The position numbers and the translations under genes are program-made. Under the pieces are notes generated by a model. The model ran no database searches. It was not told the origin of the DNA and was given only the letters and a program-made list of their open reading frames with translations. DNA of 64,000 bases from a virus: IMG/VR virus record IMGVR_UViG_3300045988_171725, positions 32,001 to 96,000 of that record; one strand, given 5' to 3'. The number at the start of each line of letters is the position of its first letter. Position 1 is the stretch's first letter. This document shows positions 6,603-49,638 of this stretch, piece by piece.

Positions 6603-6606
6603 TTCA

Positions 6607-7301: not shown

Positions 7302-7336
7302 AATTAATTAACTTATAAAAAGGGGACTTTTAACAT

Positions 7337-8074: not shown

Positions 8075-9918
8075 TGCTTAAGTGTTTTGAACTTGATTCT
8101 AACCAAATCAGAATTAGAGACATCTTAAACGACAAAAACTTCCTCGAAATAGAAATCTTTGCGATTTCTGATGCAAATCCTAACCGTAACAAAAGTCATT
8201 TTACGCTCGAGTCGATGCAAAAAGGTCTCGAGTCTTTTAACGATAAGCCGATACTCGGTTTTTTCAATAAACAAGGTGATTTTGAGTCTCATAACGGAAG
8301 AGTTGCTTACGATCCAGAAGAACAAGTGGACTATTGGGACAACTCTAACGGAGAACAAATTTTAGGTTTTATTCGCCAGACGGATAGGAAAGAAATCGTA
8401 GAGAGAGACGGTTTACACTGGATTTGCTGTACCGCAATGATATATACTCAATATAACTATAAACAAGTCAAAAAATTGCTCAAAGACCGTAAGAAAAAAG
8501 TTTCGGTCGAAATAGCGGTTTTAGACAGCGAGATGGTTGACGGAATTGAATATATCAAAGAATTTGACTTAAAGGGAATAACAATTCTCGGAAGCCGTAA
8601 CGGCATACAAGTCAAAGAAGGTATTGAAGGCGCAGGATTATCAATTCTCGAAGTTTTTGACGCGGCGAGATTCAGTGGACAAAAACAAACAATTATTCAA
8701 GCGTACTCTCAGTTAGAGGACGACGAGAAAAATAAGGAGGACGGAAATTTGGCTATGAAAGATTTTGGAAAAGCTCTTAAAGTCAACAAATCCAAAGAAG
8801 CCATGTCCGATACCAGTTGGGGCGACGTTGATAAAGCGGAGCTCAGAAAACGCATTGTCGAAGCGAGCAACTTTAAGGAAATCGCAGATGACGTGTTCCT
8901 CGACTTGAGAGAAGGCTGGGAAGAAGGGGAAGTTACGAAGCTCAAATATCCAGTAATGGAGATCAAAGGCGACGAACTGGTATATAACAGAGGGGCATTA
9001 GGCTCAGCGAAGGCTTACGCCGAGAAGAACGGCGAAGAAGAAGTCTTAAAGAAGTTAAAGGCTATTTACGGGCATTTAGATCTCGACTTCGAAGCGAAGT
9101 TCGATTGCGAATGCGACGAATTCTGTGACCTTTACGAAGACGACGTTCCGTGCAATGGCGATTGCGGCGACGATTGTGATGATCATGATGATTGCGACGA
9201 TTATTCGCTCGAAAAACACGCGGAAGGAGTGGTTGTCGAGGAAGCAAAGGGAGAACCTGTAGAAAAACCTGCTGTGGTTGTTGAAAAGGTTTATACCGAA
9301 GAGGCATTCAATGCGGCTTGCGACGAATTGAAGATGAAATGTAATGAAGCGGAAAGCAAATTTGCTGAAGTGGAAGGCAAATACTCGGAACTCGAAGCTA
9401 AATGTTGTGAATACGAAAACAAATGTGGCGAATACGAAGGTAAGTGCGCGGATTACGAAAAGAGATGCGCGGAGTATGAGAAGAAATGTGCAGAACTTGA
9501 AGAGAAGTGCGCGAACTACGAAGCAACCGCAGGAAAACTTAAACTCGAAATGGATGAATGTGTCGCGAAGATGCAGGACTACGAAGAGATTAAGAAAGCT
9601 CGTGACGAAATGGTTGAAAAATTCGCCGTTATGAGAGTCAACGAGCAAAAAGATTATATTTCCAATGTGTGCGCTAAAATGAAATTTACTGAAGAAGAGA
9701 TTAAGCCGATTGGTGAAAAATGCGAAAGAAGAGAATATGAAGATATCGACGCTATAGATAGAGATATTGCGTACTTATCTTTCCAAAAAACCAAAGCGAC
9801 GCTTTTCAGTGAAAAAACGGAAATGTTTAGTGTAAATATTGTGGAAGAACCAAAACAAAAATCTGGTCGCAAAGAAATGACTTTACGTGAGCGACTTAAA
9901 GATAATATTAAAAAATAA
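8074..9918 (+). CDS. Prohead protease/scaffold-type protein with an acidic Cys-rich segment and a Cys-containing heptad coiled coil
   Basis: 614 aa, SD AAGGAGGG, located between the portal and capsid genes. The N-terminal ~200 aa loosely resemble HK97-type prohead protease. The C-terminal half is E/K-rich coiled coil. Confidence 0.5.
   Translation: MLKCFELDSNQIRIRDILNDKNFLEIEIFAISDANPNRNKSHFTLESMQKGLESFNDKPILGFFNKQGDFESHNGRVAYDPEEQVDYWDNSNGEQILGFIRQTDRKEIVERDGLHWICCTAMIYTQYNYKQVKKLLKDRKKKVSVEIAVLDSEMVDGIEYIKEFDLKGITILGSRNGIQVKEGIEGAGLSILEVFDAARFSGQKQTIIQAYSQLEDDEKNKEDGNLAMKDFGKALKVNKSKEAMSDTSWGDVDKAELRKRIVEASNFKEIADDVFLDLREGWEEGEVTKLKYPVMEIKGDELVYNRGALGSAKAYAEKNGEEEVLKKLKAIYGHLDLDFEAKFDCECDEFCDLYEDDVPCNGDCGDDCDDHDDCDDYSLEKHAEGVVVEEAKGEPVEKPAVVVEKVYTEEAFNAACDELKMKCNEAESKFAEVEGKYSELEAKCCEYENKCGEYEGKCADYEKRCAEYEKKCAELEEKCANYEATAGKLKLEMDECVAKMQDYEEIKKARDEMVEKFAVMRVNEQKDYISNVCAKMKFTEEEIKPIGEKCERREYEDIDAIDRDIAYLSFQKTKATLFSEKTEMFSVNIVEEPKQKSGRKEMTLRERLKDNIKK
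9397..9522 (+). repeat. Six tandem 21-nt (7-codon) repeats inside the scaffold gene
   Basis: The repeats encode AKCCEYE NKCGEYE GKCADYE KRCAEYE KKCAELE EKCANYE. Confidence 0.9.
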
Positions 9919-9941: not shown

Positions 9942-10478
9942 ATGGCTACTTTTGCTAAAATTAAAATGGTATCGGAAAACGTAACCGCTTACGATATCAC
10001 TGGTAAGTTTGTTTCCAACGATCAGCTTGCCGAAGTAGAAGACGGCGCTCTTGTAGTTGTTGGCGACCTTAGAAGAAGCACGGTTTATGACAACAAAGAC
10101 ATGAACGTATTTGAAATCAAAGCACCCGCTAATGACACGGATGAAGTTGCTATAGTTGACCTTTCCGATGTTGGTAAGGGCGACGTAAGAGGTGACAAAT
10201 GGAGAGTTGGCATGAGACTTGATGGTCTCGTTGCTGATGCTGGTCAGCCTGTTAGAGTTAGAATTCTTAAACCTTATGACAGGTTCTGGCTTTCGGACGC
10301 TGGATTTGTTTTCGCTCCCGAAGTTGGCAAATTTGCTATTCCGACTGCTAATGATACGAAATTTACTCCGTCTGCAACTCAGGTTGAAGGTAAACTTAAT
10401 GTTAAGATCGAAATGGCTAAAGATTTCGTTCTTGGTCAGACGGTTGCTGGCAAGATGTATTACTGCCGTGTACTTTAA
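9942..10478 (+). CDS. Capsid-associated hypothetical protein (decoration or auxiliary, by position)
   Basis: 178 aa, SD AAGGAG, located between the scaffold and major capsid genes. Confidence 0.4.
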   Translation: MATFAKIKMVSENVTAYDITGKFVSNDQLAEVEDGALVVVGDLRRSTVYDNKDMNVFEIKAPANDTDEVAIVDLSDVGKGDVRGDKWRVGMRLDGLVADAGQPVRVRILKPYDRFWLSDAGFVFAPEVGKFAIPTANDTKFTPSATQVEGKLNVKIEMAKDFVLGQTVAGKMYYCRVL

Positions 10479-10502
10479 TTTTTAAGGGAGGAATAGAATA
10501 TT

Positions 10503-11597: not shown

Positions 11598-11616
11598 TTC
11601 GAGATTTAATAAGTTT

Positions 11617-11649
11617 TCTTATTCTTTTAACAAAATAAGAGAGTTTTTT
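11617..11649 (+). terminator. Weak AT-rich hairpin plus T-run after the capsid gene
   Basis: Stem TCTTATT (11617-11623) / AATAAGA (11634-11640), then GAG and T6. Confidence 0.3.
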
Positions 11650-11691
11650 AATTACGTTTCTCACAAAAACGTAATTTCCATTACAAAACGC

Positions 11692-11720
11692 TTGACAAAC
11701 GTTAAGTGATTTGTTATAAT
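11692..11720 (+). promoter_or_regulatory. Consensus sigma70-type promoter
   Basis: TTGACA (11692-11697), a 17-nt spacer, and TATAAT (11715-11720). It shares the flank AACGCTTGACAAA with the promoter at 56479. Confidence 0.7.
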
Positions 11721-11823
11721 AAACGTGTAAATTGCGGGACAGCAGGTTCGAAACTGTTTCCTTTTGACTCCTTACCGAGAGGATTACCGCTTTTTATATA
11801 TTTTTGTAAGGAGGATATTAAAA

Positions 11824-12945
11824 ATGCCAGCGAAGAAAAATTATAATGTCTCTAAAGAAGAATTATATGACTTATATATAATTCAAAATAAAATGGTTAG
11901 AGAGTTATCAGATTATTACAATATCCCTTTTGGCTCAATGGTAAAGATTATACGTAAATATGGATTGAAAAAAGGGAAAGAGGCTAATCAGGCGAATATT
12001 CAACGTGCTTTCGACGAAAAGGGTATCGGGAAGATGAACGCAGCTCACAAAAGAAATAAGGAATTTTTAGAAGAACACGGTTATTATCCACCACAAAAGC
12101 CAGAAGTAATCGAACGTAGAAAACAGACAAATATTAAAAAATTTGGGTGTGAAAATCCATTTGGGAACGATGAGATAAAAGAAAAAATTAAACACACAAT
12201 GCGTGAAAATTTTGGAACTGATTATGCTGGTTCGAGTGTGGAGTTACAAAATCGTTCTCAAAAGGTTATAATGGAGAAATATGGTGTATCTAATTATGGT
12301 GAACTTGCATTGTCGGAATTTACGAGAGACATTTTGTCATCAGCAGAAAAGTTAAGAAACTTCATTGTTAAAGGTGGATATAAAACAACGGAAATTGCGT
12401 CAAAAGCCATTGGTTGTGGACATTGCACTTTATGTAGACGATTGAATAAATTTGAATTATGGGATTTAATTGATAAATTTAGTTCACATTATGAAGAAGA
12501 AATTTCGAAATTCTTAGATAAATTAAACGTAAAACACTATAAGACCAAAACAAAAATATCTCCATATGAAATAGACGCTTATTGTCCTGATTATAACATT
12601 GGAATTGAATTTAATGGCGATTATTGGCACTCGACATTGCAAAAAGAAAAGGATTATCATTTGTTGAAATATAATCGTGCCAAAGATAAAGGTGTATTTA
12701 TATTTTATGTATATGAGTATGAGTGGGTTTCTAATAAACGTGTAGTTAAAGAACGTATTAAAAAATTATTTAACGGAGATTTTTGGTTTAATGGTGGAGA
12801 TTATATAATTGAAAATGGAAAAATCCCAGAGAATATTCTTATAGAAAATGGATATAAAATTATAGATGAATTACCACCTAAAAGTTATATTAGTGGACCA
12901 TATGAAATATATAATGCTGGATATAAGCATTGGTCCAAAAAATAA
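11824..12945 (+). CDS. Free-standing homing-endonuclease-like protein (HTH module + KYG repeats + PD-(D/E)XK-like core)
   Basis: SD TAAGGAGGA precedes ATG 11824; the track start at 11764 lacks an SD. The N-terminus SKEELYDLYIIQNK matches the 273-1444 protein. The repeats KKFGCENPF...EKYGVSNYG resemble those of the intron-1 ORF. The nuclease motif is YEIDAYCPDYNIGIEFNGDYWHS. The gene is AT-rich relative to its flanks. Confidence 0.7.
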   Translation: MPAKKNYNVSKEELYDLYIIQNKMVRELSDYYNIPFGSMVKIIRKYGLKKGKEANQANIQRAFDEKGIGKMNAAHKRNKEFLEEHGYYPPQKPEVIERRKQTNIKKFGCENPFGNDEIKEKIKHTMRENFGTDYAGSSVELQNRSQKVIMEKYGVSNYGELALSEFTRDILSSAEKLRNFIVKGGYKTTEIASKAIGCGHCTLCRRLNKFELWDLIDKFSSHYEEEISKFLDKLNVKHYKTKTKISPYEIDAYCPDYNIGIEFNGDYWHSTLQKEKDYHLLKYNRAKDKGVFIFYVYEYEWVSNKRVVKERIKKLFNGDFWFNGGDYIIENGKIPENILIENGYKIIDELPPKSYISGPYEIYNAGYKHWSKK

Positions 12946-12955
12946 AGAAATAATC

Positions 12956-12977
12956 ACGTCGCCTTGGCGGCGTTTTT
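12956..12977 (+). terminator. Intrinsic terminator
   Basis: 7-bp stem ACGTCGC / GCGGCGT (one G-U pair) with tetraloop CTTG, followed by TTTTGTT. Confidence 0.55.
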
Positions 12978-13012
12978 GTTATGAATAAAAGTAGTAAAAG
13001 GAGAGTTTAATT

Positions 13013-27924: not shown

Positions 27925-28932
27925 ATGGCAAGAACAACGGTATATAACGAAGATTTGTCAAAGGAGTGGCAGATCGCAAACCCGAAGAATCAGAAATTAC
28001 TCAGAGAATTTATTCGTTATTGCGTGGCGAACGATAAAAGCCCGCAAACTTGTAACCAATATGAGTCGCAACTCAAAATCTTCTTTTGCTGGAATTACAG
28101 GGAGAATGACGATAAATTTTTTGTTGACATAAAGAAGCGCGAGCTTGTGAACTTTTTCGGTTGGGGGCGGAGTATCGGTTGGAGCCCGTGCAGGCTCGCT
28201 TCTCTTCGCGCGGCGTTAAGTTCGTTCAGCAATTACATAGAACGAATACTTGATGAGGATTACCCGACATTCAGAAACCTTGTGAAGGTTCTTGAACCGA
28301 TTCACCTCGAAGCCGTCCGAGAAAAGACAATAATCGAGAAAGGCGATATAATGGCAGGGATTGAGCGGTTAGTTGCGCTTGGCGAATACCAATACGCGTG
28401 TTTCCTCTCACTTCTCTTTTCGTCTGGAATGAGGAAAGCGGAAGCCGCGCAGATGAAAGTCTCATACTTCACAACCGATAAGGTAATCGCGTTTAGGGGG
28501 CTCGCTTATATGACTCCGAAAATCAGGACGAAAGGACACGGGGCACGTGGTAAGCAGGTGCCGAGATACGTGTTCAAAGAAACGTTTGACAAATACTTCG
28601 AGCTATGGCTTAAAGAGCGCGAAAAGCTCGGAATCGAGATAGACGATTTATTCGTTATAAAAGGCACCGACGGGAAATACCACCCCGCGAAAGGACAGAA
28701 CTTTTCACATTGGGCGGTGAAAATCGGCGAGTTAATAGGCATAAATTCACTATATTGTCACAGTTTGAGACACGCGTTTACGACGTATTTGAAACGGCAG
28801 AACTTCCCGACCGACGTCGTTCAGAAAATCCAATCGTGGGGAAGCGCAGATATGGTGGCGAGATATGATGACAGAAGCGATAGCGAAGAGTTGGATAGCT
28901 TTTTTGAAAAAATGACCGAAAAGGAGAATTAA
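27925..28932 (+). CDS. Tyrosine recombinase / phage integrase family protein
   Basis: 335 aa, SD AAGGAGGG. It has a SAM-like N-domain and a catalytic-domain pattern: Arg in SSGMRKAEA, HSLRHAFTT (H-x-x-R), and Tyr in MVARYDDR. Confidence 0.85.
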   Translation: MARTTVYNEDLSKEWQIANPKNQKLLREFIRYCVANDKSPQTCNQYESQLKIFFCWNYRENDDKFFVDIKKRELVNFFGWGRSIGWSPCRLASLRAALSSFSNYIERILDEDYPTFRNLVKVLEPIHLEAVREKTIIEKGDIMAGIERLVALGEYQYACFLSLLFSSGMRKAEAAQMKVSYFTTDKVIAFRGLAYMTPKIRTKGHGARGKQVPRYVFKETFDKYFELWLKEREKLGIEIDDLFVIKGTDGKYHPAKGQNFSHWAVKIGELIGINSLYCHSLRHAFTTYLKRQNFPTDVVQKIQSWGSADMVARYDDRSDSEELDSFFEKMTEKEN

Positions 28933-35911: not shown

Positions 35912-38900
35912 ATGGATTTTAATAAAAACATAGGTGATATAGTTTATCATAAAAATTTTGGAAAGGGAAAAGTTACTAAAATTGACAGAGATGGTGACAG
36001 TTTGTCGATTGAGGTTTCTTTTGAAGAAGCTGGAAAACGTAAATCTTCAGGATTAGGTGTTATACCAAAAACTGCGCAATTTAGAGGCGTTGATTTTCAA
36101 TCTTTTTTTTCAGATACAAAAGCCAAAACAAAATCTTTATCGGGAGAAATAAGTAAAAATCGTGTAGTTGATACAACGTCTTATAAAGGTTATAGTTTTG
36201 AAAAATTACCAGAAAGTGATTTAAAGGCAATTCAGGAAGCCGTGAGAACTGGCGTTATAAAAGGCGTAGAAGATTTAAAAAAAATGTTACCAGCGGGCAG
36301 AACTATACCTTTGGAATATTTAAAATTATTAGAGGGTAAAAGCCCGACTGGCGAAAGATTACATGAGTATCAGGAAAGTGGCAAAACCGCAGAATTATAT
36401 AAAGATATTTTTAAGGGTATAAAAACAATAAGTATAACGCAGGGTAGTAAAATTCTTTTTGGTGATGATTATGCGGACGAGAATCAACTTAATAAATATC
36501 AAGAAGAAATCAACAAAAAAATTGCCGAAGTTAATAAAAAAATAGAAAGTGCTGATATAAAAACAAGAGCGATTTTAAATGATCGAAAAGCAGAGTTAGA
36601 AGAATCTAATAGAGAGTTACAGCGGCAAAGAAAACAAGCAAAAGATCAATATTCTGCTAAAGGTGGCACAGTCTTTCATAGCTTTGTCGAGATGTTGGCA
36701 CTTAATAAACTCCCGAAACTTAAAGAGGCTCTTTATTCTGGGGATAAAGAGCTCGCAGAGAATTTAATCAGAAATTACTTTTCAAAAGGTGCCACCGCCC
36801 AAACTTTAATAAAAGATAGCTCGACTAATTTTTCGGAATCGGATTCTGAAATTTTAGATGAATTTTTAAGTAAAATTAAAGATTTTGTTAATGTTGGTGG
36901 CGGAAGCGGCAGCTTCGCAACTGGTTTACAAAATTATGTAAACTTTTTAAAAGATAATAACATCACTTTAACCGATGCTGTTGAAAAAAGTATTGGCTTT
37001 GTCACGAACATCAATGATGAGTTGGTTAAATTTGTCGGAACGGTAGATGCGCTGTTCAGCGGATATCTTTTAGATCTAAAAACTGGTTCTATGCACCCAA
37101 ATGCAATTGCTTGGCAAGTTAATATGGGCAATTTCATACAGACAATGCTTGGCGGAGAGCCTGCGAAACATTTAGGGGCTTTCAACCCTGGCATGTATGG
37201 TAAAAGGGCAGGATATTTACCAGTTGAACAAATACCGTTGGAAACAATGAAAAAACTTATTGTTCAGGCGGCTATGGGAGAAAGAACCGACATTGATTTA
37301 ACCAAGTATGTAAAAGGAAGCGTTAGCACAGGCGTTGTAAAAAGAAGAGGCGAAGAGAAACAAGCTACCTTTATTAATAGTAAAGAAATGTATACTGGTG
37401 GTTACGGAGCAGAAAAACCAGAGTTACAAAAAGACATAGACAAACTAAATCGCGAAGCTAAAGAATTAGTCGAAAGCATAAAAACACTAAAAGGCGACGA
37501 TCTTGAACATATTTTAAATCAGATATATAGCACTAAAGATTATTCGCAAGGCGGAATTGAAAGTAATAAGTTTTATCGTCATGGATATTTCTGGGATCTC
37601 GTTCGCAGTATGTTGCCGTATGATATTTCTACTGTTTTAAATTATGCGATGAACGAGGGTGCAGCAATCCCTGCTACTAAGGGCGTTGGAACAAAAACAT
37701 ATAGAATAGAACAAGGCGAAGACGAACCGATTGCTGAAATAGATGTTCCAACTGTTTTAGGTATAAGTTTAAAGCAGTGGGCAAAATTGGCCAACATACT
37801 GTCTGAACTTCCTGATGGCGCAAATAAGGTGAAAAGACTTGCCGAATTGTTTGAAAAAGAATTCAAAAGTTTTAGTGTAGATGAACAAAGAAAAGTATTA
37901 TCCTCGTTCGAAACATTAATGACTCGAGAAGAAAATTTTAATCCAGAATATATTAAATTAAAAAAGCAGCAGGAATTATTGCGTGCAAAAATTCAAAAGC
38001 CTGAATCCTTTGGTGATGTAAATGTAGAAGAACTTCAGAAGGAATTAGATAAAACAAATGAAATTGTTTCTGAAATGGAAAAGTCTGGCGAATTGAATTT
38101 TTATCAAAATTTTGAAACCGCTTGGACAGACGTTGCCGATGAAATATCATGGAATAACCGCGAACTTCTGCAAGAGAGTATGACGGATTTTAAATCTGTG
38201 AAAATAGCAAGTGAAGATGCGAGACGTGGCGATAGGGAATATATGCCAGATGTTTTCGACTTAGAAACCGATCAAGATGGGCAACGTTATTATTCTGCGA
38301 GTGAATTCGAGACAGACCCAATTAAAAGCGCGACAATGACGGCGAACAGATTAGGACGAATTTTAGATTATTCTGCAAGAATTGATAAAGCGATAGAGCC
38401 GATGGCGCAAGAAATGGGAGTTTCGGTGGTTGATTTGGCAAAAACATTATTGCGAGATTTTGCCGAACAGACTGGAAGTTCCGATTCGTTTAATCGTTAT
38501 ATTAGAAGTAAAGAGTTGGCGGAAGACTTTAAAAAGCAATTCCCAAGTTTCGAAGGCAAAATCACAAAAGATGTAAGTAATTGGATTTATGACCGTTTAG
38601 ATTCCACTATCAAAGAAGAGCGCGAAGCTTTACTTGGAGTGACTGAAAGTCAAGAAGCGGGCGAAGTCACAACTTATAAAATCGGACCAAGCGGGGAGAT
38701 GTTAGATAAACATGCAACAAAGCCTTATGCGTTATTGCAAAATATATTAGGTAGAAGACTTTATTCTACTCTTTATAAATCTACAGATTCTATTCCGATA
38801 GAAGTGCTCGATGATTTAATTAAAGGTAAATCTTTAGAGTTGACGGAAAGAGTGGGGGCGGATTTGCCAGCCTCGTCAGATCACTCGAAAGAAGCCGTAA

Positions 38901-41499
38901 AAAAACGCGAAGCGCAAATAAGAAAAATAGATGAAGAGGCTGAAGAGAGAGAGAAAAGTTGGGTTGAGCAGTTTTTAAATTACGACGAACTCTTACCCGA
39001 AGCTCAAGAGCTTTTACAAAACTATATCAACACTTATAAAGAATATAAGGCAGCCGAAAAAGAACTATCCTTTTATGGTGGCGAAAACACACCAGAACAA
39101 AAATTCGAGGAATCTGATTGGAGTTATAAAGAAAGGTTAAAAGATTGGGAAAAGGTAAAAAGAAACTTCGATGAAAAAAAGAAGCAGATGGAAGAGGTTA
39201 ATGAAAACATAAAAAAGACGTTCCCATCTGGTAGAGTCGAGGGTTATAGTTCTGAAAAAATGTCGGAATTCTTAAAAAGGCGCGCAGAAGAAGGCATTGA
39301 GCAACAAAGACAAAAAAATATCGGATATGCTGCATTGTATTCTTATAGGTTCTCTGATAAAAAGAAGGCCGAACTTACACCCGAAGAAATTAATGAATAT
39401 TTGGATTACTATTCTGAACAATTTGGAATGACCACCGATGAGTTGTTGAATCTTTATAGACAAGAAAATGTTTATATGGGATTCAACGACTTTTTAAAGA
39501 AAATTGCTCAAGGACAAGATAAACGCCTGGTTTATTTTTCACCAAAAAAAATTAAAGCAGCAACAATAAAAGGCGCAGCCGATGGTGTTACTCGGGGTGT
39601 TACTAATACGGTAGAAAATATAGATCAGAAAAGCGTTGAAGAGAATGTTGCTAAAGCCGTATCGGATTCCATAAATATTGGCGAGGTTGAACCCAAAGAA
39701 GCAAGGAAGATATTACGAGATCCTGAGACCAACACACCAATAAATTCTGACGGAACGATAAACGAAGAACAGTGGTTAAAAGAACTAGATGAGAGCTTAC
39801 AGCGTTATCCAGTAGAACTTGAAAATGAATATTTTAAAAGGTTATTCAAAGATTCGCCTGATGATTATGTCCGTTTTGAAAAAGAGGTTAAAAGAACGAA
39901 GAAAGATGGAAGAAGAAACAGAACAGATCTGCGTAAATTTTTCAAGAGTGGAAATTGTGGCGACTTTGACTACAAAGATCTTCAACACGATCTCTATAAC
40001 ATAGAAATGCGAGAGGAACTTCCAGACTATTTAAAAACAAAGGAAGAGATATCCGAAGAAGAACATGGTGTCGTAATCGAAGGTGAAAATAAGGATACAC
40101 AAAAAGAGCTCATTCAAACAACAAAAGAAGAAGTTCAAGTTAAAAAACAAGGAATCGAACAAGAAAAACAAATCCAAGAAGTTCTCGATGACAAAACAAA
40201 GGAAACCAAGAAAAATGTTGATGTCGTTGAAGAAACTGGACGAGTTGAAAAACAGAACCTTGAATTAGAAAAGCAAGTACAAGAAGCAAAAAAAAAGAAA
40301 GTTACTGCAGAAAAAGATGTCAACACCTCTTTGTCGTCCAAAACTTCGATGATACCCGATAATATTTTAAAGGTGCAAGCGACAAGTGCTGACATTTCAG
40401 ATTTATCTAGAACTAAAGCAACTTCGATTACAACTGATTACGAAGGTCACACAATTGGCAAAACTTATAAATATCTTAATGATAAGGTTTTTGCTGATTA
40501 TGGTTCTGGTGGTCTTCAGGCGTGGATCGAGAATGCTAAACAGATTGGTATTGATGCAGCTAAAGCCGAATTGATAGGGATTTTGACTAAAGTTCCATCG
40601 TATAAGAAATCATCTGGCGGTTTGAGTAAAGCTGGAAGAACTGCGTTTGATGAAATAATGACCGATGCTTTTGGCGCTTCATATCAACCGCAACAAGGAC
40701 TTGGAGCCATATTATCCGAAGTCCAAGGTATTCATAAAGATACGTCTTCGATAGATGCGAAGATGGATTATTTGTCTGGCGGCGGAGGTGGCGCCCCATC
40801 TAATAAAATGGAAGTTTCATCTGACGGTGGTGCTGGAGGCGGAGATGAAGGTGGTAAAAAACCACCGAAATCTGGCGGTAGAAAAGGCAAGAGCGATGAA
40901 GAGAAGGCACAAGCGGATACTGAAAAACGGCAGAAACAAGATATAAGGGAATATCAACAGTATATTAACAGAGTTATAAGCCTTGAATCTCAGATTGATA
41001 AGCTTCAAAGGCAAGCAACATTAAGCGGCGGTAAACACAAAGATGCTATTTATGGAACAATTGACGCGCTTAATGAAGAGCTTGGGGATCTCAATCGTAA
41101 TAACGACGCGCTCAAACAAAGGGTTGCGACCGAACAAGCAGCAACAAAAGAATCGATCGACGCAACAGCAGCTCTTAGGAAACAATCAAATGCGCAAAAG
41201 AATCTTGTAAGCGTAAAAGGCGCGACCTCTATCTGGGATATGATGGCGAACGATATTCGCCGTGCGACCATGCGTGTTGCAGACTTCGGAATTGCTGCGA
41301 AGATTTTGAACAAGATCCCGCAGGATATACAGAAGGTAATCCAGTATACGAAAGAATTGGACGCGGCGATGACGAATATTCGTGTCGTCACGGGTGCTAC
41401 GGCGGAAGAGGCTCAAACGCTCGCACAAGGATATACACAACTTGCAAAAGAATTGGGGATAACCACTGTCGAAGTTGCTAATTCGGCAAACGAGTGGGT
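35912..41499 (+). CDS. Tape measure protein, exon 1
   Basis: SD GGAGGT precedes ATG 35912. It is long and K/E-rich, with coiled-coil character. The last ~100 codons begin the conserved tape-measure core (...MTNIRVVTGATAEEAQTLAQGYTQLAKELGITTVEVANSANEWV). The exon end is set by P1 pairing (see findings). Confidence 0.75.
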
Positions 41500-42673
41500 T
41501 AACAAATGTCTGGCTCACTATAAACTCCTTTAATTGCTGGAACCCCCTTAGAGCCATATAACTACAACATAACGATGAAATAGGCGTAAGTGTGATAGTT
41601 AAAAATATATGGATTGGGAAATCAGCAGCCAAACCTCGAACAGAGGAAGGTTCAACGAATATGTTCCACGAGTGTGGATAATGGGGAGCTCTACATAGAG
41701 AAATCTATGCGAAAGATATATTCTGAACTTCTGAGGAAACTCAGAGAAAATTCTATAAAAGGAGGTGAAATATTTGTGATAATAGAAAGTGAAGTTAAAA
41801 TGGTTATAAATCAATATAATTTTGATTATTATAAAAATCTTGGTTACGATATTCAAAAATGTGGACAACGAATTTTTGTAAAAGTTTCTGATTTACCAAA
41901 AACATCTGGGACAAAAATCCATACGATATGTGAATATTGTGGAGAAATAGTAGAAAAATCATACCGAAGGTATATAGAATCTATCGAATGTGGGAAAAAC
42001 TGTTGTTCAAAATGTTTGAAATACAAAATTCCTGAAAATGCTTTAGAAAAATACGGATGTCGTTCTACTTTAAGAATTCCAGAAATTCATGAATCGGTAA
42101 CTAAAAATAATCTTAAGAAGTATGGTTGTGAAAACCCTCTTGAATCAGCAGAAATTAGGGCTAAAGGTGTTCAGACTATGCAGAGTCGTTATGGTTGTAG
42201 TTATACCCTTCAAAGTGATGAATTACGTGAAAAGTGTAATCGGACATTATATGAAAATGGGAACGATATAACTGCGACAAGCAGACAACAAAGATATTTG
42301 TGTGATTTATACAAAGGAGAATTGAATTATCCTATTTGGATTTATCACATAGACATTTTGTTGTCGGACAACATATGTTGCGAATATGATGGAAGCGGTC
42401 ACGATCTTAGTGTTAAATTAGGTAATGAAACAAGAGAAAACTTTATTAGAAAAGAAAATAAAAGAATAACCTTTTTAACAAACCACAATTATAAGTTATT
42501 TAAAATACTTTCTAACACAGATATTTTGCCTAGTGATGAGATACTTTTAAACATAAAGAAACGGGCTTTTGAAATATTAAAAGTCCGAAATTATATGTAT
42601 TATGAGTACAATTTAGACACAAATATAGAATCTTTTAAATGATAAACTAAATTTAAAAGTAACACAATTACAG
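41500..42673 (+). mobile_element. Group I intron 1 (ribozyme core 5' of its ORF)
   Basis: P1 pairs exon AGUGGGU (41493-41499) with GCUCACU (41513-41519), with a U-G pair at the splice site. P/Q/R/S-like elements are ATTGCTGGAA (41533-42), AAATCAGCAGCC (41619-30), GTTCAACGAATAT (41650-62) and AAGATATATTCTGAAC (41713-28). The last nucleotide is G (42673). Confidence 0.7.
41776..42642 (+). CDS. Intron-encoded homing-endonuclease-like protein (zinc ribbon + KYG repeats + PD-(D/E)XK-like core)
   Basis: SD AAGGAGGTG precedes GTG 41776 (alternative ATG 41800); the track start at 41614 would translate the ribozyme core. Motifs: CEYCGE...CCSKC; repeats EKYGCRSTL, KKYGCENPL and SRYGCSYTL; core HIDILLSDNICCEYDGSGHD. 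Confidence 0.7.
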   Translation: MIIESEVKMVINQYNFDYYKNLGYDIQKCGQRIFVKVSDLPKTSGTKIHTICEYCGEIVEKSYRRYIESIECGKNCCSKCLKYKIPENALEKYGCRSTLRIPEIHESVTKNNLKKYGCENPLESAEIRAKGVQTMQSRYGCSYTLQSDELREKCNRTLYENGNDITATSRQQRYLCDLYKGELNYPIWIYHIDILLSDNICCEYDGSGHDLSVKLGNETRENFIRKENKRITFLTNHNYKLFKILSNTDILPSDEILLNIKKRAFEILKVRNYMYYEYNLDTNIESFK

Positions 42674-43250
42674 ACAAGGTTACGCAGGGGAAGAAGCCAA
42701 TCAATTGATTGTCGCTTCCTCGAAACTCGCTAAACTCGGTATGATTTCGACCACTGAGGCAACTAAAGATTTGACGAGCGCGATAAAAGGCTTTAAACTT
42801 TCGACAGAAGACGCGATGTCGGTTGTCGATAAATTGACAAAAATAGACCAAGTGGCTGCAATTTCCGCAGGAAATTTAGCGGAAGGTCTCGCGCGAGTCT
42901 CCACTACCGCTCAACAAGCAGGGCTTTCGCTCGACGAAACCGCCGCAATGGTAACTACGATTACCGAAGTTACGCAGCGTGACGCAAGCACGGCGGGTGA
43001 GGCGCTCAGAACTCTTATTTCGAGATACTCTAACGTTAAAGCGGGCGTATTCACGGATATGAGCGATAGCGCCGAAGAGACTTCGGGTAATATTAACGAT
43101 ATCGAAAAAGTATTGGGTAAGTTAGGGATTAGAATTCGTACTTCTGGAACTGAAATGAGAAGTATCGAAGATGTCCTTGACGAATTGGCTGAAAAGTGGG
43201 ATACACTTGATGATGTAAGTCGTAATGCAGTTGCGAGTGCTTTTGCTGGT
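42674..43250 (+). CDS. Tape measure protein, exon 2
   Basis: It carries the conserved core QGYAGEEANQLIVASSKLAKLGMISTTEATKDLTSAIKGFKL...STAGEALRTLISRYSNVK...AVASAFAG. There is no SD or ATG of its own. Confidence 0.8.
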
Positions 43251-44688
43251 AGGATGACGTATGCCAGAAATTATGGAAACATAATTTGTTAAGCACTATA
43301 AATAAATAACAAGGAAGATTGCTATATCGGTGAAGTTCTGGGGACAGATAATACCGAGGAAAGATTAAATATTAATAGTGAATAAGTAAATAACAAGGAG
43401 GTGATTTTCATGAAATGGGAGCAGTGGCAGATAGATTATCTTAAAGAAAATTGGGATAAATATTTAGATAAAGATTTGATGAAATATTTGGGCGTTAGCC
43501 CAGATTGTTTCTATGCTAAAAAGCGAGAATTAGGGTGCCTCCGATTCAAATGGACAGAGGAAAAGATAGAATTGTTAAAGAAGTATTATCCGATCGCTTC
43601 TTGGGAAGAGCTATTTCAAATTTTAGGTTGTAATAAAAGATCTTCGATAACTTCTATGGCTCACTTAAATGGTATAAGCCGAGATGTTTATAATAACAAC
43701 AAATTATCAAACTCCGACAAAGAATTTGTCAAAAACAACCACATGAATATGTCTGTTCATGAAATGTCTGACGTTATTGGTAAAAGAGCTGAATATATAT
43801 CAAACTATGCACGTAATAATCATATAAGAGTTTATTTTGGGCACGAGATAAGACCGTGGGACGAAGAATTATTCATTGAATTATATCCAAAATATACAAA
43901 CAAATATTTACATGAAAAATATTTTCCGTATTTAAGTAGGGCACAATTGCGTTCGCAAGCTAAAAAATATGGATTGGTTAAAAATAAAGAGAAAAGTGTT
44001 AAATGGTTTGATAAAGAGCAACTTTTAGAAGATTTAGAAAAGGCTACAAGAGAGCTGGGAAGAGTCCCTTTGTTAATCGAGTTTCAATCGCTCGGCTTAC
44101 CAACTGAAGCGACATACAGAAGATATTTTGGGTCTGTAACGAAAGCATTTGAGCTTATAGGAATAAAAAGACCATGCTATGTTCATGGTCAATGCCATAA
44201 GTTAATGGTATATAGAGATAAAAATGATAATTTTTGTCTATCTATGTCGGAAGTAATTATAAGTAACATTCTAATAGATTTCGGCATAACATTTGAAAAA
44301 GAAGTCCCTTATAAAAATTTTGTTGACGACGAGGATATTGGCGAAAAGATTAGCGATTGGAAGATTGGTAATAAAATAATCGAATATTTTGGAATGGTAG
44401 ATTATAAAGATTATAATGATGGTATGAATTTAAAAATCGAAATTTGCAAAAGACACAATATTTCATTATTAGCATTATATCCTGAAGATCAAAAAGATAT
44501 CGATAAGATGAAACAAAAGATAAAAGAATTTATTAATATTTAAAATCCGTAGAGACTATACGCAGTCAACCGTATAAGGTTAAGATATAGTCCGACCTGC
44601 ACGTATAATCCAATTAAAAAGAAGGTGCAGAAATAGCCAGAAATGGTTATTCGCCTGTATTATTACAGGTATGAAAAGTAACAAAAAG
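43251..44688 (+). mobile_element. Group I intron 2
   Basis: P1 pairs exon CUGGU (43246-50) with GCCAG (43263-67), with a U-G pair at the splice site. The S element AAGATATAGTCC (44582-93) matches the classical consensus 12/12. P7 pairs GACTATA (44554-60) with TATAGTC (44586-92). The last nucleotide is G (44688). Confidence 0.8.
43410..44543 (+). CDS. Intron-encoded homing-endonuclease-like protein (Myb/HTH-like repeats, HE-associated repeat, PD-(D/E)XK-like C-terminus)
   Basis: SD AAGGAGGTG precedes ATG 43410. The segment LLEDLEKATRELGRVPLLIEFQSLGLPTEATYRRYFGSVTKAFELIGI resembles the 'homing endonuclease associated repeat'. The C-terminus reads SEVIISNILIDFGITFEKE...DWKIGNKIIEYFG. Confidence 0.7.
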   Translation: MKWEQWQIDYLKENWDKYLDKDLMKYLGVSPDCFYAKKRELGCLRFKWTEEKIELLKKYYPIASWEELFQILGCNKRSSITSMAHLNGISRDVYNNNKLSNSDKEFVKNNHMNMSVHEMSDVIGKRAEYISNYARNNHIRVYFGHEIRPWDEELFIELYPKYTNKYLHEKYFPYLSRAQLRSQAKKYGLVKNKEKSVKWFDKEQLLEDLEKATRELGRVPLLIEFQSLGLPTEATYRRYFGSVTKAFELIGIKRPCYVHGQCHKLMVYRDKNDNFCLSMSEVIISNILIDFGITFEKEVPYKNFVDDEDIGEKISDWKIGNKIIEYFGMVDYKDYNDGMNLKIEICKRHNISLLALYPEDQKDIDKMKQKIKEFINI

Positions 44689-47421
44689 GTACGTCAACGT
44701 GAATCATTCAATATATTATTAAGCAACTGGGATCGTGTAAAGGAACTCACTGAAGAATCCGCTAACGCCGCAGGAACTGCCGACGAGAAGTATTCCGCTT
44801 ATATGGACTCCATGGAGGCGGCGACGAAGCGGCTTCAAAACGCGTGGGAAGGATTTACTCAATCGCTTGAAACAAGCACGGTAATGAAATTCCTCACGAA
44901 TTCAGTCGCGCTTTTGGTCGAGAATGCCGACAAACTCAAATATATAATAACCGTGTTTGCAGCTGCGAGTTCAGCAAAAATTTTTGACTTCTTTACCAGC
45001 AAAGGCGAAACAGGCGGGTTTAAAGGTTTAATCGCCAACATCCCGTTTATAGGCAGAGGAACGAAAACTAACAATATACTCGAAAGTATTGACAAAAAAG
45101 TCGGAGATATTCGAGGAGAGGTTCAGAAAGACAAAAGTGGAATTACTAAAAATGGTAGTCTAATTAGTAAGATTGGGCAATACGCAGCCGATAAACGTAC
45201 TGTAGGAAAAGATCGTAAGTTTATAAAAGATTATGAAAGTGGTAAATTCGATTCTGTAACTGATCCATCAATACAAAACGCTTATTATAAAAGATATTTG
45301 GGTGCCAAACAAAATTTATCATCAGATGATAACGAAGCGTTAAAGCGTTTGCTGGATGCGAAAGCTGCGAGAATGACCGCATTCGCTCAAACAGCAGCCG
45401 TCTCTGGAATTGCTACCTTAGCAACTCAATTAATGACAACGAAGCAAGTTTCTGGTTACGGCCAAACCGTTGAAGAAACTGGTGGTGACAAAGCGTTAAG
45501 AACTGGGCTTGCCACTGCTGGCTCAGTAGCTGGTGCGGCAACCGCCCTTATCCCCGTTATAGGACCTATGATAGCTCCAATCGTTTCTTCTTTGGGCTCA
45601 ATTGCTGGCGAAGGTTTGGCTGGATTAATAGCTAAATGGGCTCATAAAGACGAGCTTCAAATGAAGCAGCGTGTTGCCGAAGCCAAAGAAAATCTTTCTG
45701 CACTTGGCGATATAAAAACCGCTATCGAAAATAACGAGGATTTATTGAACAAAGACTCCTATACATCTAAAGATTACGAAAAGTTAAAATTATACGCCGA
45801 TTCTTTAAGAGAAAAATTCGCTAATAATGAAGATTTAGCTAAATTGTTTTTAGCCGATGTTCATAATCTTGATATTGGAACATTTACGACAATTGAAGAC
45901 GTTCTCTCTCAAATTACTAAGGGGAATGTCGATATCAATAAGCAACTTAAGAGGCAATTAGAGCTCACGACTGCCAGATTAACGGTAGAGAGCACCCTCG
46001 GCAAACAGGAAGAAGATAGAAAAAAAATACAAGAATACGTTGGTAAAAAATATGAATCGGATCGATCTGGTGTAAAAGCAAATTATTTATTTAAAGATCC
46101 AAATGATACATATTATACACGTAGTAATTTATTGGATTTTTATACAAGAGAAGATATTGCTAACCTTCTAAACACTGCAACTTATACTACTAATGGTGTT
46201 ACCTATCAAGGCAAAACATATAGTGGACCTGAAAAAATAGACTATATTCAAATAAAAGGAAACGATATAGAAGAAGTTCTTCAAAATGCGCAAAAAATCC
46301 TTGAAGAGGTAAGAAAAGGTTATTCTGAAACAAATAAAAATCTTGTATCTGAATGGGAAACAATTGTAAATAATTTATCAAAACAATTAGATAACCAGAA
46401 AAAATTAAATGCAAAACTTTTATCTACCCAAGTTGATTATGCTTATTTAACGTCCGATATTTTAAACACTAAGTCTCGTGATGAAATACGTGATCTTGGT
46501 ATGGAAGGCGTTGTTAAGATAATTCGTGACGAACTAATTTCGCAAGGTGTTGGTGTGGTTGATGAGAATGGAGTAATTCATCAAGACGCTTATGATGCCA
46601 TCGTTAAAAAAATACGTTCCGACTCGACTTTGAGTGATTATATAACGAAAGATATTCGCTCGATTGGGGATCTTATTTCTAAAGACGATATACAAGGTAT
46701 TGAATCGTTTGCAAGAGCGTTTGGTTTAACAACCGAGGCGGCGAAAGAGCTTGGTAAGCAGTTCGGATATTTAACTCAATCAATGGGTTTGATGAACGTT
46801 CAAGAGACGACGGAATACTATGAGAAACTGAGTACGGTATTTTCAAATTTAAGTTCGAATGTCGCTTTGACCGCAGGACAGATCAACAGTCTTTTGACGA
46901 CCTCTGAACTCAAAGATTTGCTTCCGTATTTGATGAATCAAGACGACCCTGACGCTTTGATAAAGGAACTTTATAAGAGAATTTACGGCGGCGGGCAGGA
47001 TGTCCATATGGAGAACGCGCTTTATGACGCGACCATGGGAATGTCGACCGATAAATTCAGAGAATACTTGCAAAACAAAGGGTTAAAAGAATATGTTGCT
47101 GAAATCGACAAAGGCGGGTATACCACCTTATCTCAAATTAGAGATGCAGTTAAAGAATTTGATGAGACAGACCCGAGACGCCAAGAGTTTTTGGAATATC
47201 TTGAAACGATAAATTATACTTACTCCAAAGACTTAACAGCTTTAGAGAAGCCGTCTAAGTATATTAAATCTCAACTCGAAGAGCAAATAAATAATCTCCA
47301 AGAGCAAAAAGATGCTTTGTCTCAAATTAATGACGAGAGAGAAAAAGAACTCAATCTAATTAAAGCGAAACAAGCGCTCGAAGACGCTCGGAAAGAAAAG
47401 AGAAGGGTTTATAGACAGGGT
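44689..47421 (+). CDS. Tape measure protein, exon 3
   Basis: It starts VRQRESFNILLSNWDRVKELTEESANAAGTADEKYSAYMDSMEAATKRLQNAWE, continuing the core from exon 2. It contains a hydrophobic Gly/Ala segment (TAAVSGIATLA...GPMIAPIVSSLGSIAGEGLAGLI) and long coiled coil. Confidence 0.8.
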
Positions 47422-48660
47422 AAACAAATATGCCCTTAAGTAACTATATCGGTTAAAACCTAGAAGTAGGTAAGACCGAGGTAAGATAAATTTTAAAATG
47501 TTAATATGCAATAAAATATAAATAAATTAAAAAAGGAGGTGATGACATGGAAAATAATATTAAAGAAGATTTGATAGCGTTAACCAACGAACAGGCAAAG
47601 AAGATTAATGCTGAAATTATTGAAAGATTTACGGGGAAAGACGGTAAGGCAAAGTTAAAAATACGCTCTTTATCATATCCCGAAAAAGGAGTAAGGGTCG
47701 TTGATCGATATAATTTCTTGCACTCCACTGCCCAATATAGATATTTTAACGCCGTGACTTGTAAAAATGATTTATTGAGACATGAAGAAATAACATCTAG
47801 AATTGATATAATTGGAGATTATATCAACACTGCGACAAAAATTTTATGCAAATGTAAAATTTGTAGCAATGAATGGATGGTAACTCCAAACAAATTATTA
47901 CAAGGTCGTGGATGCCCTAAGTGTGCTTCACAAAAAGCACATCGGGCTTACTCTAAATCACATGAAGAATTTATAAATGAATTAAAAAACGTCAACCCTT
48001 CTATCATGATACTTGATGAATATTATAATAATCGCACTAAAATAAGATACAAGTGTAATATTTGTAATAAAGTATCTATGTCTACTCCTTGTAAATTATT
48101 AAACGGGGAGAGCGGGTGCCATTTTTGTAAAAGCTCGATCGGTGAACAGAAGATATTCTGTTTTTTATTTGCCCACAAAGTACCATTTGAGAGAGAAAAA
48201 TATTTTGAAGATTGTAAAGATAAAGGGAAATTACCTTTTGACTTTTATTTATCTGATTATAATATTTGTATTGAATTTCAAGGTGAACAACATTTCCGTC
48301 CAGTAGACTTTTCATATACTCCAACTGAGGAATCGAAAAATAAAGCCGTTGAAAAATTTAAAGGTATTCAGAAGCGTGATAAAATAAAAGCAGAATATTG
48401 TAAACAGAATGGAATACGTCTTTTAATTATTGATTATAAACAAATAAAAAATATAGAAAGCATATTAACAAAAGAATTAAATTTATCAACCGTAACGACT
48501 GCAGGATCTTTGTGGTAACATAAAGATTGAAGTTACTTCAATATGTTTTAGACATATTGTAATATACAGTCTGAACTCGTAATATAACGAAATGAAATAC
48601 GAGAGTAAGGATTAACGTCCTTGCCGCCACATTTATTGTGGTCATAAAAGTAACAGATTG
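47422..48660 (+). mobile_element. Group I intron 3
   Basis: P1 pairs exon AGGGU (47417-21) with GCCCU (47432-36), with a U-G pair at the splice site. It shares CTATATCGGT...ACCGAGG and the 3' motif AAAAGTAACA with intron 2. An S-like element AATATACAGTCTGAAC lies at 48561-76. The last nucleotide is G (48660). Confidence 0.7.
47547..48518 (+). CDS. Intron-encoded homing-endonuclease-like protein (two zinc ribbons + PD-(D/E)XK-like core)
   Basis: SD AAGGAGGTG precedes ATG 47547. Motifs: CKCKIC...CPKC and YKCNIC...CHFC; core LPFDFYLSDYNICIEFQGEQHF...KRDKIK. Confidence 0.75.
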   Translation: MENNIKEDLIALTNEQAKKINAEIIERFTGKDGKAKLKIRSLSYPEKGVRVVDRYNFLHSTAQYRYFNAVTCKNDLLRHEEITSRIDIIGDYINTATKILCKCKICSNEWMVTPNKLLQGRGCPKCASQKAHRAYSKSHEEFINELKNVNPSIMILDEYYNNRTKIRYKCNICNKVSMSTPCKLLNGESGCHFCKSSIGEQKIFCFLFAHKVPFEREKYFEDCKDKGKLPFDFYLSDYNICIEFQGEQHFRPVDFSYTPTEESKNKAVEKFKGIQKRDKIKAEYCKQNGIRLLIIDYKQIKNIESILTKELNLSTVTTAGSLW

Positions 48661-49638
48661 ATTGGCTTCGTTATGGAAAGCAATGAGGAAGCAATTGCCG
48701 AAGCGCAAAAAAATCTCGAAAACTTAAATACTCAAAAACGCCAAGAAAATCTTCAGACGCAGATCGACACGCTTCAGATGCAGAAAGACATTATCGAAGC
48801 TCTTCCAAATCAGGCTCAACTTGAACAAACCAAAAAGATTTGGGAATTGTGGGCAGCGGATAAGGGAACGAAAGGAAGTCTTGCTTCCGTAACCGAAGGC
48901 GTAACGATGTTGGCGGATGCTTATACAAATGCCACAAATCGGATGAATATGCGTGCTAAAACAGAAGGGGTTCTAAATACACCTGATGAAAAGAGCAGTA
49001 TGCAGACATCTGATGAAAATACTAACCCCGTTATCACCCTTAGTGAAACTCAAATAGAATATACCAAAGCCTTAGTTTCTAACGTGGATGATATTAGAAA
49101 TATCTTATTAGGGAAACATACTAAAAACTTCCAAAATATGTTGGATTTCGTGAACAAAAACAACATGTTACAAGGCGATTATGCACGGTGGGGAGAAATG
49201 TTCAGAGCTGCTGGTATATTAAACGAATGGAATTCTTTGTCTGACAAAGAGAAAGAAGCTATTAGAAGCCAAGCAAATACGAGAGCGGGTGGAGACATTT
49301 CCTTCCAAGGCGGTAAAGCTCTTATCAACGAACTTGGAACCGAAGCGGTCATCACACCTGGCGGCACGCTCACCGCGCTTCCTTCGAAGACGGGTATCGT
49401 CCCTGCGGACATAACCCGAAACGTTTGGGCGCTCGGGGAAGTTGCTCCGACGTTGGTCGCACAGCTCGGTTCGCTTACGCAAAAGACGCTTTCTGGCAAC
49501 GCTGGAAACACGACCTACGAAGAGGGTCAATACTTCGACAACTTTACGATGAACGTTTACCCCGCAAAAGGCGACGACTTGAGCAAGATCCTGGAGCAAG
49601 CACGTGCACAAATGCGGCTTACGCGTCATAATAATTAA
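48661..49638 (+). CDS. Tape measure protein, exon 4 (C-terminal part)
   Basis: It begins IGFVMESNEEAIAEAQ..., with no SD of its own. The C-terminal pattern GGKALINELGTEAVITPGGTLTALPSKTGIVPADIT is typical of tape-measure C-termini as I recall them. Confidence 0.75.
   Translation: MGFVMESNEEAIAEAQKNLENLNTQKRQENLQTQIDTLQMQKDIIEALPNQAQLEQTKKIWELWAADKGTKGSLASVTEGVTMLADAYTNATNRMNMRAKTEGVLNTPDEKSSMQTSDENTNPVITLSETQIEYTKALVSNVDDIRNILLGKHTKNFQNMLDFVNKNNMLQGDYARWGEMFRAAGILNEWNSLSDKEKEAIRSQANTRAGGDISFQGGKALINELGTEAVITPGGTLTALPSKTGIVPADITRNVWALGEVAPTLVAQLGSLTQKTLSGNAGNTTYEEGQYFDNFTMNVYPAKGDDLSKILEQARAQMRLTRHNN

Follow-up and report, generated by a model that had tools for sequence, protein, structure and literature searches.

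A 64,000-nucleotide (nt) stretch from an uncultured gut phage of ~145 kb (IMG/VR record IMGVR_UViG_3300045988_171725, positions 32,001 to 96,000) contains a tape-measure gene of ~3,290 codons that appears to be broken up by three mobile group I introns. The whole stretch is called the window below; all coordinates are window positions unless a related locus is named, and all parts of the gene lie on the + strand. From the sequence comparisons set out here, we consider it very probable that one tape-measure gene is restored by three group I splicing events. This reading was put forward in an initial annotation made from the window sequence. It is supported by ribozyme evidence (a match to the Rfam model RF00028, an open reading frame (ORF)-less twin of intron 2 in the relative L010 together with helices P1 and P10, and a covarying fold), by the continuity of the frame and by the restoration of protein domains. 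The predicted parts of the gene are as follows.

35912–41499, + strand: exon 1, 1,862 codons plus 2 nt; N-terminal PcrA/UvrD-Tudor-like motif, long K/E-rich region, Gly-rich linker and start of the PhageMin_Tail domain
41500–42673, + strand: intron 1, predicted group I, 1,174 nt by the canonical U...G rule (alternative 3′ end 42670 or 42671)
42674–43250, + strand: exon 2, 577 nt; core of the PhageMin_Tail / TP901 tape-measure domain
43251–44688, + strand: intron 2, predicted group I, 1,438 nt
44689–47421, + strand: exon 3, 2,733 nt
47422–48660, + strand: intron 3, predicted group I, 1,239 nt
48661–49638, + strand: exon 4, 978 nt including the stop

Following established group I biology, we infer that the introns splice, that their ORFs encode active endonucleases and that they home, by the following steps. 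After transcription, each intron would fold as a ribozyme whose internal guide pairs with the end of the upstream exon, forming P1 with a U.G wobble at the cleavage site. Free guanosine would attack this site, and the freed exon would then attack the 3′ splice site aligned by P10, joining the exons in frame. An endonuclease-like gene with its own ribosome-binding site would be accommodated in a peripheral loop, that of P6 in introns 2 and 3 and that of a hairpin after P9 in intron 1. Its product would presumably cut intron-less alleles of co-infecting relatives, and repair would copy the intron in.

Proposed exon joins and the predicted spliced tape-measure protein

The four same-strand ORFs from which the gene was originally assembled (35912–41533, 42705–43292, 44671–47439 and 48658–49638, all +) were recovered, and the exon lengths add up as described (5588 + 577 + 2733 + 978 = 9876 nt, or 3291 codons and a stop). 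Joined in this way, the 9,876-nt frame contains no internal stop and encodes a product of 3,291 amino acids (aa). With the same sites, GGT precedes all three inserts and G terminates each, the boundary pattern noted at the outset. The GC content of the inserts is 30–31%, compared with 37–46% in the exons. The initial annotation also held that exons 2–4 lack a Shine–Dalgarno (SD) sequence or a credible start. This is correct for exons 2 and 4, which have neither an ATG start nor an SD, but exon 3 does have an ATG, at 44671, although it is not preceded by an SD and falls within the conserved tail of the intron.

The spliced C-terminal 1,591 aa were used as a query to collect homologues, which yielded 443 relatives, and the best 120 of the 443 were mapped onto the spliced protein. 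The tape-measure core had been said to read straight across the gaps; indeed, homologues without the respective intron align through all three junctions.

Junction 1: spliced product ...ANEWV[R]QGYAGEE...; 7 of the best 120 homologues read through, 85 begin at the first Met after the junction
Junction 2: spliced product ...SAFAGVRQRE...; 92 of the best 120 homologues read through, 28 begin just past the junction
Junction 3: spliced product ...VYRQGIGFVMES...; 110 of the best 120 homologues read through, 9 end just past the junction

Expressed as site occupancy among these 120 homologues, occupied versus empty, junction 1 stands at 85 versus 7, junction 2 at 28 versus 92 and junction 3 at 9 versus 110. 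Gene callers cut the gene into seven ORFs and label the pieces 'hypothetical' or as short tape measures (P0016, P0031). Because of this splitting, most database entries of the family begin at the first Met past junction 1, and statistics on tail length or protein families drawn from such split entries are wrong. The record P0016, from a ~145-kb contig, is 100% identical to the product of the exon-3 ORF; an exact-protein look-up with the window's exon-3 ORF returned no contig on record.

The proposed splice sites at junctions 2 and 3 are codon-exact against intron-less homologues. Spliced junction 2 (SAFAG/VRQRESF, with a slash at the splice point here and below) is identical in intron-less homologues, and spliced junction 3 (VYRQG/IGFVMES) has the length of the consensus VYRAGVGFxxES. 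The proposed site at junction 1 did not hold up in the same way, as it leaves the product one residue short of all seven spanning homologues; this junction is treated separately below. An intron-less gene is also present in L009, a 136-kb contig from a Hadza gut sample. It encodes 2,636 aa, and the order of the genes around it is the same as in the window.

The spliced product matches the domain profiles of the TP901 family of tape-measure proteins above the curated cut-offs. Exon 2 alone matches PF10145 over profile positions 41–201 (91 bits, 1e-25), whereas the spliced product matches positions 2–201 of 201 with 103.8 bits (cut-off 33.2). TIGR01760, the profile of TP901-type tape measures, matches the spliced product over positions 8–318 of 349 with 118.4 bits (cut-off 28.8), in a single stretch that runs over junctions 1 and 2. 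A 279-aa segment over the same two junctions can likewise be aligned without a break to genes annotated as tape measures in 222 phage records, among them Bacillus Basilisk-like and Tsamsa-like phages, Brevibacillus phage Sundance and Lactococcus 949-group phages.

Predicted ribozyme cores of the three inserts

The segment 41480–41810 (331 nt), scanned alone, gave a match of intron 1 to RF00028 at 41490–41746 with 51.7 bits (gathering score 50) and an E value of 1.6e-12, in an alignment that spans the full model (positions 1–253). This alignment places P1 of intron 1 as follows.

41493–41519, + strand: intron 1 P1; exon end and intron start 41493–41501 paired with the internal guide 41511–41519

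P1 contains the U.G wobbles U41499.G41513 and U41500.G41512, and the guanosine-binding G-C pair in P7 looks normal. The pair G41498-C41514 of the window is C-G in L015, L048, L049 and L050, a compensatory difference in P1 between allele types that speaks for selection still acting on splicing. In L015 (about 9570–9880), intron 1 is present at the same site without the ORF body; this copy of ~300 nt keeps the ORF-flanking hairpin and a few terminal codons.

The core of intron 1 is 79% identical to an unannotated stretch between two coding sequences labelled 'RNA polymerase beta subunit' in the Serratia jumbo phage 2050HW (L001, 95899–97326 of that record). The intron there scores 82.6 bits with RF00028, carries an endonuclease ORF and splits the RNA polymerase beta gene. 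A core identity of ~79% between a jumbo phage of a Gram-negative host and a Firmicutes-type gut phage points to a wide horizontal spread of the ribozyme. The core motif is present in 23 IMG/VR contigs, and a 107-nt stretch of the intron-1 core was the sole match when the locus was compared by megablast with 50,697 phage records.

For introns 2 and 3, the following helices define the fold.

Intron 2, + strand: P1 43246–43250/43263–43267; P10 43256–43262/44689–44695; P6 43365–43377/44531–44543; P7 44554–44560/44586–44592
Intron 3, + strand: P1 47417–47421/47432–47436; P3 47439–47444/48532–48537; P6 47485–47493/48479–48487; P7 48497–48501/48567–48571

In intron 2, every canonical helix from P1 to P9 is found in order and fully paired, and the intron ends ...AAAAAG. 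Its P1 is CUGGU/GCCAG, with a U.G wobble at the splice site. P10 comprises 7 base pairs (bp) contiguous with P1 and is formed between the guide GACGUAU (43256–43262) and GUACGUC at the start of exon 3 (44689–44695). L010 (9716–10018) carries an ORF-less copy of intron 2 at the same site, which is 303 nt long, near-identical outside the ORF and keeps the ORF-flanking hairpin and a few terminal codons. The ORF-less introns of L015 and L010 are as expected for decay of the endonuclease gene. The L010 copy aligned end-to-end with RF00028 (29.2 bits, E 9.3e-6). The window's intron 2 found no match in Rfam because its 1.1 kb ORF in P6 splits the core. A blastn search with the 3′ half of intron 2 found nothing.

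We folded intron 3 by hand and obtained P1, P3, P4, P5, P6, P7, P7.1, P8, P9, P9.1 and P9.2, all 11 fully paired and in canonical order. P1 is AGGGU/GCCCU with a U.G wobble, the terminal nucleotide is G and P2 is absent; P10 has just 2–3 bp in the window allele, compared with 5 bp including wobbles in L046. The covariation table for this intron comprised five sequences. L046, L039, L045 and intron 2 differ in sequence yet remain complementary in P3, P5, P6, P7, P7.1, P8, P9, P9.1 and P9.2, and the P6 pairing of 9–18 bp is entirely different in each compared intron. RNAalifold, run on a plain MAFFT alignment, independently recovered P4, P5, P7, P7.1, P8, P9 and P9.1, with 22 of the 53 predicted pairs changed on both sides.

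The intron-3 ribozyme is found at junction 3 in two further loci, L046 (12813–13788) and L047 (8382–9357), with compensatory changes in P5, P7.1 and P9. In the P6 loop of both, a 229-aa LAGLIDADG_2 ORF replaces the 323-aa CapR/DUF4379 nuclease ORF of the window, so that one intron has exchanged its predicted endonuclease for another. With the rule used for the window, L046 and L047 would splice to VYRAG/VGWTYE, in agreement, by length and motif, with the consensus VYRAGVGWxxE of intron-less homologues. A search with the 3′ half of intron 3 gave matches to two Thomasclavelia phages only.

A set of results weighs against group I splicing and has to be set beside this evidence. A covariance-model search had been named at the outset as a check on the introns, and its outcome was mixed: intron 1 alone scored above the gathering threshold, but RF00028 was not detected at larger scale. 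Rfam gave no matches in a scan of the whole window at the gathering threshold and no group I match in 41300–48900 (7.6 kb) at E values up to 10. The whole introns 2 and 3, scanned in place, gave no match either, and the 3′ half of intron 3 alone gave none to RF00028. The score of the ORF-less L010 copy is below the gathering score of 50. Because of the Rfam null, the group I status of intron 3 rests on the hand-built structural alignment of five sequences. PDB sequence searches with the three insert ORFs returned chance-level matches only and no relative of a solved structure. Two features of junction 1, described in the next section, count in the same direction. The Rfam misses at long scale are explained by the speed filters and the 1-kb ORF insertions, and a plain covariance scan of the region, taken alone, would wrongly have dismissed the introns. 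We regard intron 3 as a group I intron, on the strength of its fold and covariation, though one that the curated model did not detect. Intron-rich phage genes would be missed systematically unless short sub-regions or ORF-deleted constructs are scanned.

Could the inserts instead remain unspliced, with free-standing endonuclease genes dividing the tape measure into separate polypeptides? The window does contain a free-standing gene from the family of the intron-1 ORF (11764–12945), and a permanently split gene is conceivable given that junction 1 is occupied in ~90% of the relatives. Such a split would, however, pass through the PF10145 domain and would leave exons 2 and 4 with neither an ATG start nor an SD, and exon 3 with the SD-less ATG in the conserved intron tail. 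Furthermore, every insert is flanked by a ribozyme core, the guide sequences co-vary with the exon, and a mere gene split would give no reason for ORF-less inserts of ~300 nt to be retained at junctions 1 and 2. We consider this explanation highly improbable.

It is also very unlikely that one or more of the introns are splicing-defective and that the genome is that of a crippled phage or a decaying prophage. In favour of a defect, intron 3 has no P2, a short P10 in the window allele and no match to the Rfam model. Against it, no helix is disrupted, the endonuclease ORFs are not truncated and the exons are stop-free. The same introns are moreover present in several independent assemblies (L002, L014 and L048), and in L046 and L047 with compensatory changes. 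Two other kinds of element were rejected for the inserts: inteins, since the inserts are out of frame, hold stops and bring an SD of their own, and group II introns, since no insert has a reverse-transcriptase ORF whereas group I core elements are there.

The 3′ boundary of intron 1

At junction 1 the intron rule and the exon evidence are in conflict. The pair 41499/42673 is the only in-frame one that obeys the U...G rule, and it gives NEW-V-QGY. This canonical junction drops an Arg that all seven spanning intron-less homologues keep (NEW-x-R-QGY), as do the further intron-less loci L003, L005, L010, L011 and L013, and it has no P10 contiguous with P1. Alternatively, intron 1 might lack the canonical terminal G. 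In that case the 3′ exon would begin at C42671 (intron 41500–42670, ending in A), giving NEW-V-R-QGY and a product of 3,292 aa; in a variant, the 5′ cut would fall after U41500 and the 3′ exon would begin at A42672, leaving an intron that ends in C. The predicted ligation products differ accordingly.

Junction 1, canonical: GGGU/ACAAGG
Junction 1, non-G end: GGGU/CAGACAAGG or GGGUU/AGACAAGG

With a non-G end, an in-frame AGA brings back the conserved Arg. The guide 41507–41512 (UGUCUG) is Watson–Crick complementary to 42671–42676 (CAGACA) and contiguous with P1, providing 6 bp here and 7 bp in the L015-type allele. That such contiguity is normal for the family is indicated by a related intron in L020, which combines a canonical G end with a contiguous 5-bp P10. 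Tape-measure alleles without the intron in IMG/VR and metagenomes read exactly GAGTGGCT[T/C]AGACAAGGTTA, the sequences that ligation at the alternative junctions would yield for L-type alleles. The canonical product GAGTGG[CG]TACAAGG occurred in no tape-measure allele in pattern scans of viral and metagenome collections. Scans of these collections for ligated junction-1 patterns retrieved intron-less alleles but no obvious cDNA, and a 94-aa query over junction 1 gave four one-sided fragments only.

On the other side, an intron ending in A or C would break the terminal-G rule, from which group I introns almost never depart. The sole natural exception known to us is reportedly a Coxiella 23S rRNA intron (Raghavan 2007). 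The guanosine-binding G-C pair of the intron-1 P7 looks normal, as mentioned above. Because the 3′ exon at the L020-type site is similar to the intron tail ACAAUUACAG, the CAG could have been inherited, the join having formed at a CAG microhomology, instead of belonging to the exon. No comparative signal comes from these nucleotides, which do not differ among the eight intron-bearing alleles. Weighing these points, we lean towards the canonical junction and a product of 3,291 aa; the two non-G ends, taken together, are the less probable solution, but one to be reckoned with. Should the exon evidence prevail over the G end, junction 1 would be one of the rare exceptions to the terminal-G rule.

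The L020 intron lies at RVANG/LSTITARL, has the boundaries GGU/...AAAG/ with the 5-bp contiguous P10, and is in frame when compared with the relative L036, which has no intron at this site. Its 3′ exon starts CUAAGUACAAUUACAG and resembles the intron-1 tail AAAAG-UAACACAAUUACAG. A reading of ACAAUUACAG as a 3′ terminus proper to the intron-1 family was ruled out, as in L020 it is exon sequence coding for STITA. The likeness to L020 suggests a transfer of intron 1 from the site occupied there, together with some of the former exon. We offer it only tentatively, and think it rather unlikely, that intron 1 ends in A or C, having moved from the RVANG/LSTITARL site with ~14 nt of the old 3′ exon and a re-tuned guide, and that this form is the majority allele, in ~90% of the tape-measure genes of the group.

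Insert ORFs, known systems and genome context

The description of one SD-served endonuclease-like ORF per insert was confirmed: each insert has one large ORF, with AAGGAGGTG located 7–9 nt upstream of its start.

41776–42642, + strand: intron-1 ORF, 288 aa, GTG start, SD 41759–41767
43410–44543, + strand: intron-2 ORF, 377 aa, SD 43395–43403, in the P6 loop
47547–48518, + strand: intron-3 ORF, 323 aa, SD 47533–47541

The intron-1 ORF is situated in the loop of a hairpin downstream of P9 (41747–41757 with 42624–42635) and matches Pfam DUF7487 (8.8e-13) and PHROG 12131, 'homing endonuclease' (1e-37). A TTG start at 41614, given for it in the ORF list, was rejected as read-through of the ribozyme core. 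The last codons of the intron-2 ORF form the 3′ strand of P6. This ORF matches the Pfam family HNH_repeat, a homing-endonuclease-associated repeat (9.5e-11), and PHROG 22655, and the same 377-aa ORF is present in L011–L013. The intron-3 ORF begins in the P6 loop and covers the 3′ strand of P6 and the 5′ strand of P7. It matches the Pfam families CapR and DUF4379, a treble-clef zinc finger, as well as PHROG 559 'HNH endonuclease' (3e-59), 9084 'homing endonuclease' and 7140 'intron encoded nuclease'. An NCBIfam scan of the three insert ORFs gave no matches. Judged by these family profiles, all three ORFs bear signatures of the homing-endonuclease type, the intron-2 ORF by HNH_repeat only.

A 393-aa ORF elsewhere in the window (11764–12945, +), between two structural-region ORFs, contains DUF7487 and REase_MTES_1575 and belongs to the same family as the intron-1 ORF. 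Its flanks (11598–11763 and 12946–13012) have a TTGACA...TATAAT promoter-like site upstream and a GC-hairpin with a T-run downstream. We considered a fourth intron at this position and rejected it because of these promoter- and terminator-like signals and the location between genes; it looks like a free-standing homing endonuclease gene.

The motif AAAAGUAACA occurs a few nt before the 3′ end of all three introns (42655–42673, 44674–44688 and 48646–48660) and also in L039, L041 and L045. The terminal G follows it after 5 nt in introns 2 and 3 and after 9 nt in intron 1. Relatives carry further elements of this kind. A different intron with an intron-1-like core lies at junction 2 of a 51%-identical tape-measure gene in L005 (4574–6342). 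Tape-measure group I introns were also seen in L020 (about 6150–7675), at the RVANG/LSTITARL site, and in L036 (about 9960–10480), at GLVAAG/. In L045 (reverse strand, about 4164–4705 of the reverse complement), an intron-3-like element lies 12 nt downstream of junction 3 (GQGWV/WEADPD). Conserved tape-measure motifs appear to be recurrent intron targets.

The arrangement has several counterparts among known introns. The td intron of phage T4, an example of group IA2, has an endonuclease ORF in the P6 loop with its own ribosome-binding site, as do introns 2 and 3 here, in whose sequences the conserved P, Q, R and S elements can be recognised. The host gene (td functions in nucleotide metabolism) and the endonuclease family differ from those here, and intron 3, unlike td, has no P2 and an ORF that extends over one strand each of P6 (3′) and P7 (5′). 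The orf142 gene of Staphylococcus phage Twort reportedly contains three self-splicing group I introns, which are said to be short and without endonuclease ORFs, in a gene that is not a tape measure. It would thus share with the present case three group I introns in one phage protein gene, as well as a P7.1-type extension like that of intron 3.

The closest precedent comes from prophages of the Bacillus cereus group, whose tape-measure genes harbour the group I introns TMP-IVS1, IVS2 and IVS3 (Tourasse & Kolsto 2008; PMC2504315); at most two introns are reported there for any one gene (IVS1 and IVS3a in E33L, IVS2 and IVS3a in KBAB4). The initial annotation spoke of scattered reports of introns in phage late genes and of none with three in one tape-measure gene; this overstated the novelty, as multi-intron tape-measure genes with three sites and up to two introns per gene were already known (PMC2504315). 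The B. cereus introns resemble those of the window in occupying three distinct sites of a Firmicutes-phage tape-measure gene of >1,200 aa and in being phage-type (IA1/IA2 there). In both systems, related introns are fitted to different sites through P1 and P10, different introns occur at one site, some copies have degenerate or missing endonuclease genes, and presence among relatives is patchy. In contrast to the B. cereus genes, the window gene has all three sites filled, with a full-length endonuclease ORF at every one. Its length is over twice theirs, and the phage that carries it, of ~145 kb, comes from the gut and is uncultured.

Three endonuclease-bearing group I introns in one gene are also known from the large-subunit rRNA gene of Synechococcus sp. 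C9, where all three homing-endonuclease genes are of the LAGLIDADG type (PMC1995217); the present case differs in that the host is a protein-coding late gene and the endonucleases are of three different predicted types. In cluster J mycobacteriophages, group I introns reside in virion structural genes of large-genome siphoviruses, as here, and are spliced during late expression, but they occur one per gene and in capsid and minor-tail genes rather than the tape measure (PMC3706429). Multi-intron phage genes are well documented, for example in the jumbo phages AR9 and MarsHill. The window gene is an unusually full example of a known phenomenon, with three sites filled together, three endonuclease types and a giant host gene. 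Public assemblies contain empty, occupied, ORF-less and endonuclease-swapped states over the three sites of this one gene, and such alleles form a compact natural data set for the invasion–decay–loss cycle of homing introns.

The N-terminal extension of ~1,750 aa belongs to the same ORF in relatives, with 59% identity in L010 over residues 1–1262, and is also fused to the tape-measure core in intron-less relatives such as L009. Whole-protein lengths in relatives are roughly 2.6–3.7 thousand residues. The PcrA/UvrD Tudor domain match (PF21196) covers 35930–36040, or tape-measure residues 7–43, with 25.8 bits against a cut-off of 23.9. It turns up weakly in the relatives L010 and L048 and is odd in a tape-measure protein; in helicases, this fold binds RNA polymerase. 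The last 117 residues (3175–3291; 49288–49638) are the best-conserved part among distant relatives. They are 63–95% identical, mostly >72%, even where the overall identity of the homologue is only ~40%, and presumably contact the tail tip. A tail of ~0.5 micrometre would be an extrapolation from the length of the tape measure. Phages of the Lactococcus 949 group, whose tape-measure core matches here, have very long tails of ~0.5 micrometre.

The tape-measure gene lies downstream of the large terminase gene (2338–4242) and of weakly tail-like genes; family searches of the genes flanking the tape measure gave no informative matches. Megablast points to no close cultured relative, and for terminase and tape measure alike the nearest matches come from large siphoviruses of Firmicutes. 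The window also carries collagen-repeat proteins. A gene of the phage-integrase family (tyrosine recombinase; 27925–28932, +) lies within the structural and tail-fibre region and is found at the same place in L009, L010, L011 and L046. The genes adjoining it encode collagen-repeat, LRR_5, YadA_head or Mtd_N proteins that vary by genome, and the recombinase might be linked to tail-fibre variation rather than to lysogeny.

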